From assembly GCF_988243305.1 (NCBI RefSeq), contig NZ_OZ547136.1: a stretch of DNA of 64,000 nucleotides; one strand, 5' to 3'. Position numbers and translations under genes: made by a program. Positions within the stretch are counted from its first letter, which is position 1, and each line of letters begins with the position of its first letter. Under the pieces are notes generated by a model. It worked only from the letters and a program-made list of their open reading frames with translations, was not told the DNA's origin and searched no databases. Positions 62,250 through 63,986 of this stretch are shown here, in pieces.

Positions 62250-62768
62250 TCATTCAGGGCAAAGTGCTAAAATTTCTCTATCCCGGGATGCCCCTACCAA
62301 CGCAGCACTCCCGGAGATATCATTACAGCTCTGCAACTGATTTCCGCGACTGAACCGCTCAGTTCCTATCCTTCCAGTTGCCTTCCTGCAGCCCCCCTCC
62401 CTGCTGTATACCCCGGTACCACAACGCGGGCAGCACTTTTCTCCTTCATAATCTTCGTCACACATCACACAAAACCACTTTCTCACCTTCACCGTATAAT
62501 CCGGAACCGTCATACCCTGCAGATGCAAACGACGGGCCTCTTTCTCTGCCGGGTCAAGCCAGGTGCATCGCAGCAGGATTTTCTCAGCGACAGTCATCTG
62601 GTCATGTTCAAACCACGGTGGTTGTCCGTCATTGCCCCGCTGAAGTGTTAACGGGCATCCACAGGACACACAGCACAAAACGTCCTGGCGGTTGTGCTTC
62701 GCTGCTTCTTTCGCCGTAACAAAATGGCCTTTGCTGTCATTCGCCATATAACAGTTCAGAATTCGCAT
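62250..62768 (-). CDS. hypothetical zinc-ribbon protein, paralog 2
   Basis: Start set at MRILNCYMAND with AGGAGG 4 nt upstream; CxxC pairs (CVSCGC, CVMCDED...CCPRCGTG) and PWFEH motif shared with the neighbouring ORF; overlaps its stop by 13 nt. Confidence 0.55.
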   Translation of the reverse strand: MRILNCYMANDSKGHFVTAKEAAKHNRQDVLCCVSCGCPLTLQRGNDGQPPWFEHDQMTVAEKILLRCTWLDPAEKEARRLHLQGMTVPDYTVKVRKWFCVMCDEDYEGEKCCPRCGTGVYSREGGCRKATGRIGTERFSRGNQLQSCNDISGSAALVGASRDREILALCPE

Positions 62769-63163
62769 ATTTCCTCCTGAGTTGTCCGGGGAATACTGAA
62801 TCCTCCGGTCTGGCAGTGTGTGCAGTACCGCTCCCCATAATAATCGTGGTGACATTGTCTGCAGTGCCAGCTGGCTTTACGCACCACGGGTAAGGCATCC
62901 GGTACGAATTGCTGCAGACGTTTAATCAACTGTATTTCTCTGCGCTCCGGCCTGACATAAGGGCACTGTTGACCGTGCTCTGTCAGCCTGTCGTCAGTGT
63001 GTTCAAACCAGGGAAGTTCAGTGTCGTATTGCGGATGGTATCTGAGTGCACTGCCACACAAGTGGCAGGTGTAGTTAGCATAAGGTGCGGCCTGTGCAGT
63101 ACGGGCGCCCGTCAGACGTCCGTTGCCATCAAGAGCGATAAAGGATTTTGCGTACATAGTCAT
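62756..63163 (-). CDS. hypothetical zinc-ribbon protein, paralog 1
   Basis: 135-aa ORF with GAGGA upstream; CHLCGS...PWFEHT...CRQCHHDYYGERYCTHCQTGG. Confidence 0.55.
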   Translation of the reverse strand: MTMYAKSFIALDGNGRLTGARTAQAAPYANYTCHLCGSALRYHPQYDTELPWFEHTDDRLTEHGQQCPYVRPERREIQLIKRLQQFVPDALPVVRKASWHCRQCHHDYYGERYCTHCQTGGFSIPRTTQEEICEF

Positions 63164-63416
63164 ATTCCTCAGCCGCCAGACGACACGCAGGCAACAGCCG
63201 TCCCGGTACGGGCAGCGTGGTCAGGGTGTGAATGGCGGTTCAGTTAAAATCTGGACTGGAGTTTGGGTAAAGCAGGCTGGTTGCTGTTACAGCACTGTGG
63301 TTGTCACACAATGGAACACTGACGTAAAAAACAGTCAGTGGGCGAGTGGATACATCGTTGCCGCCAGACAACAACCCATACTTTTGGTTTGCCGGATATT
63401 GGCGCGCCAGTCGTGC

Positions 63417-63986
63417 TCAACTCCGGCTACAGCCAAAATTGCGCTCACCGGTGCAGTGAGCTTTGGTATGTTCCTTCGCCAGATAGTCAGCACGTTCCAG
63501 CACCTGCTGAAAGCCAGTGTCATCATCGCGTTCCAGCCACACCGCCGGCCAGGCCGGAAAATGCACCAGCGTGGCATGGCACCCGACATCCACTCCCAGG
63601 GCACTGCACCACGCCTGTTTAATCATCCCGGCCAGTGATCCCGGAGCACGGTAATCACCGGCACGACACCAGGTATCCCGGTTAACCAGCAGCATCAGGT
63701 GATAGTGTTTTTTACCTTTGCACTCCCCAAACTCCCGGGCCCAGACGTAATGCAGGGTGGTGGGATGCACGCGTTTACCTTCCCGATGCTTACGTTTCTG
63801 GTAAGCGTCGATTCGGGCTTTCAGGGCATTGATGAAGCGGGATATCACAGCTGCGTCCGTTGCTGCCGGTACATCCGGGAAACGCAGGTCAACCCGCAAT
63901 GCCGTCAGGCGGGGATGAACATTCAGTGCGTGCCGCACCGTCTCACGAATACGTTGCTGCCAGAAGGGGTTGTATTTGTAGGTCAT
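63417..63986 (-). CDS. cryptic-prophage protein, YagK/YfjJ-like (assignment from memory)
   Basis: 189-aa ORF MTYKYNPFWQQRIRETVRHALNVHPRLTALRVDLRF...; family call is recalled, not searched. Confidence 0.5.
   Translation of the reverse strand: MTYKYNPFWQQRIRETVRHALNVHPRLTALRVDLRFPDVPAATDAAVISRFINALKARIDAYQKRKHREGKRVHPTTLHYVWAREFGECKGKKHYHLMLLVNRDTWCRAGDYRAPGSLAGMIKQAWCSALGVDVGCHATLVHFPAWPAVWLERDDDTGFQQVLERADYLAKEHTKAHCTGERNFGCSRS

Follow-up and report, generated by a model that had tools for sequence, protein, structure and literature searches.

What do two small, tandemly encoded zinc-ribbon proteins do in an Escherichia coli genomic island, and why do they sit behind a gene for a putative DNA nickase? 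The question is raised by the right-hand end of a 64,000-nt stretch of DNA (contig NZ_OZ547136.1; the whole stretch is hereafter called the window), where a preliminary description, made from the letters alone, had recognized a prophage-like remnant of three minus-strand genes and had singled out the last two, here termed ZnR-1 and ZnR-2, as the least explained coding sequences. We find that this trio (positions 62250–63986) is the truncated core of an operon of CP4-type (P4-integrase) islands of Enterobacterales, which in its full form comprises a YagK/YfjJ gene, AlpA, a mini ribbon, ZnR-1, ZnR-2 and a YagK paralogue without HUH and Tyr motifs. The ZnR pair are members of a catalogued but uncharacterized family, identical copies of which are annotated in many genomes, and we tentatively propose that they form a zinc-stabilized adaptor that cooperates with the HUH nuclease and AlpA when the island is excised, replicated or mobilized.

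Layout of the minus-strand trio

The last 1.9 kb of the window consist of three minus-strand open reading frames (ORFs). Gene 1 (63417–63986) encodes a 189-aa protein of the YagK/YfjJ family (also named 'inovirus Gp2 family'), a predicted HUH (Rep-like) single-strand DNA endonuclease. Gene 2, ZnR-1 (62756–63157; 133 aa), combines a DUF7828 and a Zn_ribbon_11 domain, and gene 3, its paralogue ZnR-2 (62250–62768), is a 172-aa ORF in the window, with an ancestral end at 62359 that corresponds to 136 aa. The full ZnR-1 ORF covers 62756–63163, and an upstream ATG at 63163 would yield 135 aa; translation likely starts from the ATG at 63157, which has GAGGA 7 nt ahead of it and agrees with orthologues that begin with MYAKSF. 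From this start the protein is identical to WP_000270974, a 'putative zinc ribbon protein' of the Prokaryotic Genome Annotation Pipeline (PGAP). The ZnR-2 start at 62768 is preceded by AGGAGG, and ZnR-2 ATGCGAATTCTGA runs over the ZnR-1 stop in an overlap of 13 nt, so that the good ribosome-binding sites and the overlap first described for the pair are indeed present. The genes and strand of the proposed three-gene operon likewise stood, and all three may plausibly form a single operon, although 253 nt separate gene 1 from gene 2. Scans of positions 62000–64000 for repeats, promoters and terminators returned nothing above chance.

Both ZnR genes are conserved as coding sequences in relatives. 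Pairwise dN/dS (the ratio of nonsynonymous to synonymous substitution rates) against orthologues, over unsaturated comparisons (dS 0.09–1.0), was 0.10–0.29 for ZnR-1 and ZnR-2 alike, and both are under purifying selection across genera.

A conserved operon in Enterobacterales islands

Fetched loci were scanned with locally built hidden Markov models, and synteny was counted over the 26 loci whose upstream sequence extended for 2.5 kb or more; 25 genome loci had been found with the ZnR-1 clade only, and the sample is therefore biased to ZnR-1-type islands and includes some near-duplicates. A YagK/HUH-type ORF lay less than 3 kb upstream of ZnR, on the same strand, in all 26 loci. The same held for alpA in 24 of them, the two exceptions being E. 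coli loci arranged as in the window. The neighborhood is thus conserved in other genomes, where the preliminary description had advised looking, and integrase, CbeA/CbtA and candidate defense genes were also found in the islands of relatives. Two full-length ZnR genes were present in 11/26 loci, and the 13-nt overlap between them recurs in Mixta, Hafnia, Siccibacter, Superficieibacter, Tenebrionibacter and a Klebsiella IncFIB/HI1B plasmid. On this Klebsiella megaplasmid (NZ_CP082986), PGAP had independently named the successive genes Gp2, AlpA, zinc ribbon, zinc ribbon and Gp2-type.

Fuller versions of the operon hold two further components. Between alpA and ZnR-1 lies a basic ORF of 44 aa, a stand-alone Zn_ribbon_11-like mini ribbon (RWKCPRCRRQYCGARPCPVCF; L016 of Hafnia paralvei ATCC 29927, 7731–7865, L017 7730–7867, L030 7719–7853 and L007 4903–5037, in our numbering of loci), which is missing from the called genes of L007, the single such locus with a gene table. 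The other component, immediately behind ZnR-2, is a second YagK-like gene (L016 8839–9474, L017 8909–9457 and L038 9900–10466), named 'inovirus-type Gp2 protein' by PGAP, in which the HUH histidines and the Tyr motif have both been lost; it is apparently an inactive paralogue of the upstream nickase.

Distant single-copy relatives keep a YagK_YfjJ_C gene, Phage_AlpA and a ZnR gene on one strand. In their longer contigs ZnR is followed by variable cargo (an ars operon, restriction-modification and candidate defense genes) and then by a P4-type integrase, and on the other side of the module lie GTPase, antirestriction and DUF932 genes, to which a shorter contig adds RadC and CbeA/CbtA. Being the last core gene before arsenic resistance, restriction-modification or candidate defense cargo and the integrase, ZnR could also be read as a conserved first cargo gene with an anti-defense, defense-related or host-manipulating function, whose product targets a host or phage protein instead of island DNA. 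The antirestriction (KlcA-like), RadC and DUF932 genes held by these islands would fit such a role, and a near-neutral isoelectric point (pI) suits protein binding. We nevertheless regard this explanation as distinctly unlikely: the proteins have no PADLOC match, nothing was found in 50,697 phage genomes, and the strict linkage to HUH genes, and not to any particular cargo, argues for a core role.

As a separate observation, a gene divergent from the yagK/alpA operon (L007 227–1456; L010 7524–8477) shows a weak Pfam match to RepB-RCR_reg, a rolling-circle plasmid replication regulator, which may be a faint hint of a replication module.

Gene 1 as a predicted HUH nickase

The assignment of the first gene to the YagK/YfjJ type was borne out by a Pfam match to YagK_YfjJ_C (E = 1.1e-47), accompanied by a weaker one to REP_ORF2-G2P (E = 4.7e-5). 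Two motifs are invariant in 13 homologues, namely H94-Y-H96, the HUH metal-binding motif, and Y168-L-A-K171, which places a catalytic Tyr on a YxxK helix. The protein also has the HUH/Rep nuclease fold. By motifs and fold, gene 1 is therefore predicted to be a member of the HUH endonuclease superfamily and a nickase.

The minus-strand spacer at 63240–63416 can be aligned to the 3′ end of a different, divergent HUH gene of Salmonella diarizonae and Mixta (L013–L015) together with the spacer that follows that gene, which suggests that the E. coli yagK may have recombined into an older arrangement.

Domain architecture and zinc sites of the ZnR family

ZnR-1 and ZnR-2 are paralogues, as first proposed, sharing 31% identity over 118 aa (BLASTP, E = 1e-15). 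Pfam assigned DUF7828 to residues 4–89 of both (E = 2.8e-31 in ZnR-1 and 1.5e-30 in ZnR-2) and Zn_ribbon_11 to residues 96–128 of ZnR-1 (E = 1.3e-9) and 93–124 of ZnR-2 (E = 1.5e-16), so both window proteins display the family order of an N-terminal DUF7828 followed by a C-terminal Zn_ribbon_11. Among 34 diverse relatives, DUF7828 was found in all and Zn_ribbon_11 in 33. Residues C33, C36, F53, H55 and C67 of the N-domain, together with W99 and C101, are invariant in this set, and C104, C114 and C117 are kept in at least 90% of its members. The N-terminal CxxC, PWFEH and C-terminal CxxC-x9-CxxC motifs pointed out earlier are thus real and conserved, and all eight putative zinc ligands are present in both window proteins. 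The invariance or near-invariance of these cysteines and the histidine implies two predicted zinc sites per protein, a C2HC site (C33/C36/H55/C67) and a C4 ribbon (C101/C104/C114/C117). An AlphaFold2 model of ZnR-1 reached a mean confidence (pLDDT) of 81.8.

When 1.84 billion cluster representatives were searched with a profile, only 284 scored E ≤ 0.001. Named members and fetched loci are from Enterobacterales (Escherichia, Salmonella, Citrobacter, Klebsiella, Enterobacter, Serratia, Yersinia, Hafnia, Budvicia, Mixta, Erwinia and others), to which the family appears to be restricted in the sampled set; a few metagenome-assembled genomes under other labels that contain a near-identical E. coli-like sequence are probably contaminated. 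One member of 238 aa (P0178) is a complete ZnR protein to which a further DUF7828 N-domain is naturally fused, echoing the tandem pair.

The family goes by the Pfam names DUF7828 (PF25165) and Zn_ribbon_11 (PF11682, formerly DUF3279) and by 'putative zinc ribbon protein' and 'Ybl85', and identical or near-identical proteins are annotated across thousands of E. coli genomes. The view that the pair is unexplained holds insofar as no tool assigned a function; the proteins are not orphans, their Pfam families being annotated in thousands of genomes. Literature searches under DUF3279, PF11682, DUF7828 and Ybl85 found no relevant paper. NCBIfam, PADLOC and PHROGs gave no informative match for either ZnR, with nothing below E = 0.2 in PADLOC for any of the three proteins and no significant PHROG family for either ZnR. 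The structural comparison advised in the preliminary description also ended without a function, only family members being found among the 50 Foldseek matches listed against AFDB50. Candidate relationships that surfaced elsewhere were dismissed: the best hit of a sequence profile search of the PDB (E = 0.14) was a chance chemokine match, a RanBP2-type finger (E = 0.38) was a pattern-level resemblance and no more, and the labels 'DNA-directed RNA polymerase beta subunit' (UniRef) and 'ribosomal protein L37AE' (JGI) attached to some members were regarded as mis-annotated zinc ribbons, Pfam showing no match to such families.

A conserved leader upstream of ZnR-1

On the minus strand, ZnR-1 is preceded by a non-coding leader (63158–63238) that contains an imperfect inverted repeat, the repeat stopping just short of the ribosome-binding site. 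Over its ~80 nt the leader is 86–94% identical to the Mixta, Hafnia and Tenebrionibacter loci, as opposed to 63–66% for the ZnR-1 coding sequence, and it is kept whatever the upstream gene. A single copy of its 24-nt core is present in the window, as in each of the 13/38 fetched loci that have it. A reading of the leader as a structured RNA (riboswitch-like or a small RNA) was rejected: Rfam contained no match to it, the folding energy of the single sequence was ordinary (z = −0.07 versus shuffled sequences), and RNAalifold gave −7 kcal/mol with little covariation. In a hand-specified, window-derived long-hairpin structure, 79% of pair counts were paired versus 76% in controls, and the covariation score was reached by 6/500 shuffles. 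A DNA site is therefore favored, and the leader is probably a protein-binding DNA site, a candidate operator or nick/loading site.

The leader, with a TTCACA (−35-like) hexamer in the region preceding ZnR-1, also enters into another explanation, in which the ZnR proteins would be zinc-finger proteins that control the transcription of island or helper genes, either Ogr/Delta-like or partners of AlpA, and might autoregulate through this conserved inverted repeat. ZnR directly follows alpA in most loci, as such a regulator might, and the proteins are small, bind zinc by prediction and are encoded in tandem; P4 Delta is itself a tandem duplication. We consider a regulatory role unlikely, given that neither Ogr_Delta nor any family of DNA-binding transcription factors appeared among the Pfam matches at E ≤ 10, that a consensus scan found no promoter-like site in 62000–64000, and that the leader motif is single per locus, with no regulon-like set of sites.

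A possible adaptor for the HUH nuclease

Under the adaptor proposal, which is the best supported of the readings considered here yet still less likely than not, ZnR-1 and ZnR-2 would each be a small two-zinc protein with a C2HC finger resembling CoiA_N at the N-terminus and a C4 ribbon at the C-terminus. Translational coupling would ensure that the two are produced together, and the pair might then assemble into a hetero-oligomeric, zinc-stabilized adaptor that binds island DNA, the HUH nuclease or both, with the inverted repeat of the leader as a candidate DNA site. Such an adaptor could direct or restrain nicking, and hence rolling-circle replication or mobilization, in step with AlpA-driven excision. 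The proposal is supported by the 26/26 synteny with an HUH gene, the conserved 13-nt overlap, the dN/dS of 0.1–0.3, the zinc sites, the HUH motifs and fold of YagK and the conserved leader, alongside the domain architecture and paralogy of the pair; it also draws on the recurrent CoiA N-finger similarity and the comparable Pseudomonas islands described below. Heterodimer formation, binding to nucleic acid or protein, and a role in replication or mobilization are what the proposal would add to these observations.

Several points weigh against it. No structural match to ZnR was found in the searches above. The predicted pI spreads from ~5 to 9 across the family, a scatter atypical of a general DNA binder. 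The folding energy of the leader is ordinary and its covariation support modest. ZnR lies at the end of the core operon beside variable cargo, a position that also fits a cargo, regulator or anti-defense role. Finally, CP4-6 of E. coli K-12 carries YagK without any ZnR; the HUH protein can thus do without ZnR, and the dependence runs from ZnR to its HUH neighbor and not vice versa.

A bolder version, which we hold to be less probable than the adaptor proposal itself, would unite the mini ribbon, the ZnR pair and the dead YagK with AlpA and the HUH nuclease in an undescribed excision-coupled replication or mobilization machine. The ZnR pair would there recognize a conserved hairpin-like site and load the nickase onto it or gate its action. 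If true, enterobacterial genomic islands of a large family, with defense and resistance cargo, would possess such a machine. CP4-type islands are found in most E. coli genomes and carry adhesins, toxin-antitoxin pairs, antirestriction genes and variable defense or resistance cargo. Their movement and possible replication are poorly understood, and the predicted YagK/YfjJ HUH nickase with its trailing, coupled ZnR pair provides testable candidates.

The window copy lies in a decayed CP4-44-type island

The end of the window matches the E. coli chromosome beside cobUST and the tRNA-Asn cluster. Around the trio is the CP4-44-type gene set, comprising a GTPase, Ag43, DUF932, antirestriction, YeeS, YeeT, CbeA/CbtA and YeeW genes, with YfjI also among the neighbors; this context is annotated in strains cq9 and B1-56, which are 100% and 99.8% identical to the window end. 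Location and gene set together place the trio in a CP4-44-type island. Of 5426 complete E. coli genomes, 3099 contain 80% or more of the 1.9-kb segment, and the median number of matching places in a genome is two. A tblastn search with ZnR-1 found no match in the 50,697 phage genomes, and only 32/72,556 plasmids had one; 'prophage' is therefore a historical label for what is instead an integrative island. The term used in the preliminary description is apt in the naming sense of K-12, the island carrying Ag43, CbtA/CbeA and YeeS, and not as a statement of kinship with phages.

The copy in the window is incomplete. Just downstream of ZnR-2 the island is truncated by an IS3-family element split by a group II intron (58578–62017, plus strand). 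This interval holds IS3 transposase ORF fragments, a 507-aa reverse transcriptase/maturase of the intron (59915–61438) and a match to the Rfam model Intron_gpII (61442–61528; 64.9 bits); IS30, IS66 and ISL3 debris also flank the module. No remnant of the downstream YagK-like gene, alpA or the mini ribbon was found when the window was searched for them, and the module is also without a nearby integrase. An AlpA homologue is encoded elsewhere in the same island, past an IS66 element. With alpA, the mini ribbon, the second YagK and a nearby integrase lost, the role proposed for the pair is probably no longer exercised in the window.

ZnR-2 also differs from its intact alleles. The window has a G6 homopolymer at 62392–62397 (minus strand), where intact alleles have G7, and this 1-nt loss after the last CxxC shifts the frame of the tail. 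Residues 1–126 of the window protein are identical to intact WP_001221617, after which a divergent tail runs to 62250; the left boundary originally given to the trio is thus a frameshift artefact, the intact end, ...YSREGGLQEGNWKDRN, corresponding to window position 62359. Two E. coli genomes with 99.8–100% identity to this segment have their ZnR-2 labelled 'frameshifted' by PGAP. Strain MRSN346595 has one extra G (81-nt probe match), with an intact 411-nt coding sequence for a 136-aa protein that terminates in the intact end, and strain 3359 has a 78-nt in-frame allele and a 135-aa ZnR-2. Most E. coli carry an intact allele of 135–136 aa, and an 80-nt probe found the exact window allele in only 224/2927 E. 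coli genomes, which makes it a minority, derived form. The post-ribbon tail is variable in length and sequence throughout the family, and the core domains of ZnR-2 are therefore untouched by the frameshift. It may be added that the G6/G7 tract decides the frame of the tail, that E. coli alleles include a form shorter by 3 nt and in frame, and that the protein clusters hold another ZnR-2 tail variant.

This decay raises the possibility that the trio at the window locus is a functionless leftover of a dead island, its frames open only because too little time has elapsed. The missing alpA, mini ribbon, second YagK and integrase, the surrounding IS3, group II intron, IS30, IS66 and ISL3 debris, and a ZnR-2 that PGAP calls a pseudogene would all be expected of such a relic. 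We think it improbable: the frameshift spares all the zinc ligands and alters only the tail, which is variable in the family anyway, ZnR-2 is intact in most E. coli and an identical ZnR-1 protein is encoded in every E. coli locus examined, and most of the segment is retained in the 3099 genomes counted above.

Comparison with known systems

CoiA is a competence single-stranded DNA endonuclease whose N-terminus is a putative C2H2 zinc finger (bioRxiv 10.1101/2024.02.06.579203). The ZnR N-domain resembled this finger (PF25164) at E ≤ 0.1 in 8/34 members, with a best value of 1.3e-3, each match being below significance singly; DUF7830 was matched, below threshold, in 6/34. Like ZnR, CoiA has a CxxC knuckle followed by an aromatic-x-H strand, whereas its fourth ligand is His and that of ZnR is Cys (C67), and the genomic context of ZnR is unrelated to competence. 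Beyond this weak CoiA_N match of ~50 aa, Pfam found no nuclease family, and hence no counterpart of the PD-(D/E)XK nuclease domain of CoiA, in the window ZnRs or their 34 relatives.

HUH Rep or relaxase modules of integrative elements include xis-int-repSA of Streptomyces pSAM2 and the NicK-driven replication of ICEBs1. In these, as in the islands studied here, a factor of the Xis/AlpA type adjoins an HUH nuclease within an integrative element. YagK, in contrast, is a bare nuclease domain of 190 aa with no helicase, and we know of no zinc-ribbon partner in HUH modules of the pSAM2/ICEBs1 type.

P2 Ogr and P4 Delta are small Cys4 zinc-finger activators of late genes from elements with P4-type integrases, and the tandem duplication in P4 Delta loosely parallels the ZnR pair. 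Unlike Ogr/Delta, ZnR proteins have a different cysteine spacing, an extra N-terminal domain and no phage copies, and the Ogr_Delta model was absent from the Pfam matches of both ZnRs (E ≤ 10) and from the scan of the 34 relatives.

Closest in gene content are Pseudomonas genomic islands, for which a tyrosine integrase, AlpA, an inovirus Gp2-like protein and RadC have been described as the likely core (PNAS 2025; bioRxiv 10.1101/2024.08.29.610337), with variable defense cargo between integrase and core (bioRxiv 10.1101/2024.08.29.610337). The ZnR islands share these likely core genes; they differ in the zinc-ribbon gene, which goes unmentioned in the text of that paper ('zinc' occurs 0 times). 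Compared with the DUF7828 and Zn_ribbon_11 family as defined in Pfam, the window pair shows no difference at the sequence level except for the frameshifted tail of ZnR-2. For the window itself the outcome is mainly a clean annotation, that of a known uncharacterized family in a decayed island; the present analysis adds to this the conserved operon in its complete form, with the mini ribbon and the dead paralogue of YagK, as well as the HUH motifs and fold of YagK/YfjJ, the conserved leader and the minority frameshift allele.

In the best-matching genome (L002, positions 1–14000), the region left of shiA/amn/yeeN contains the yersiniabactin High Pathogenicity Island genes irp1, ybtU, ybtT, ybtE and fyuA, and by extension from that genome the window probably holds yersiniabactin genes as well, at ~30000–44000.

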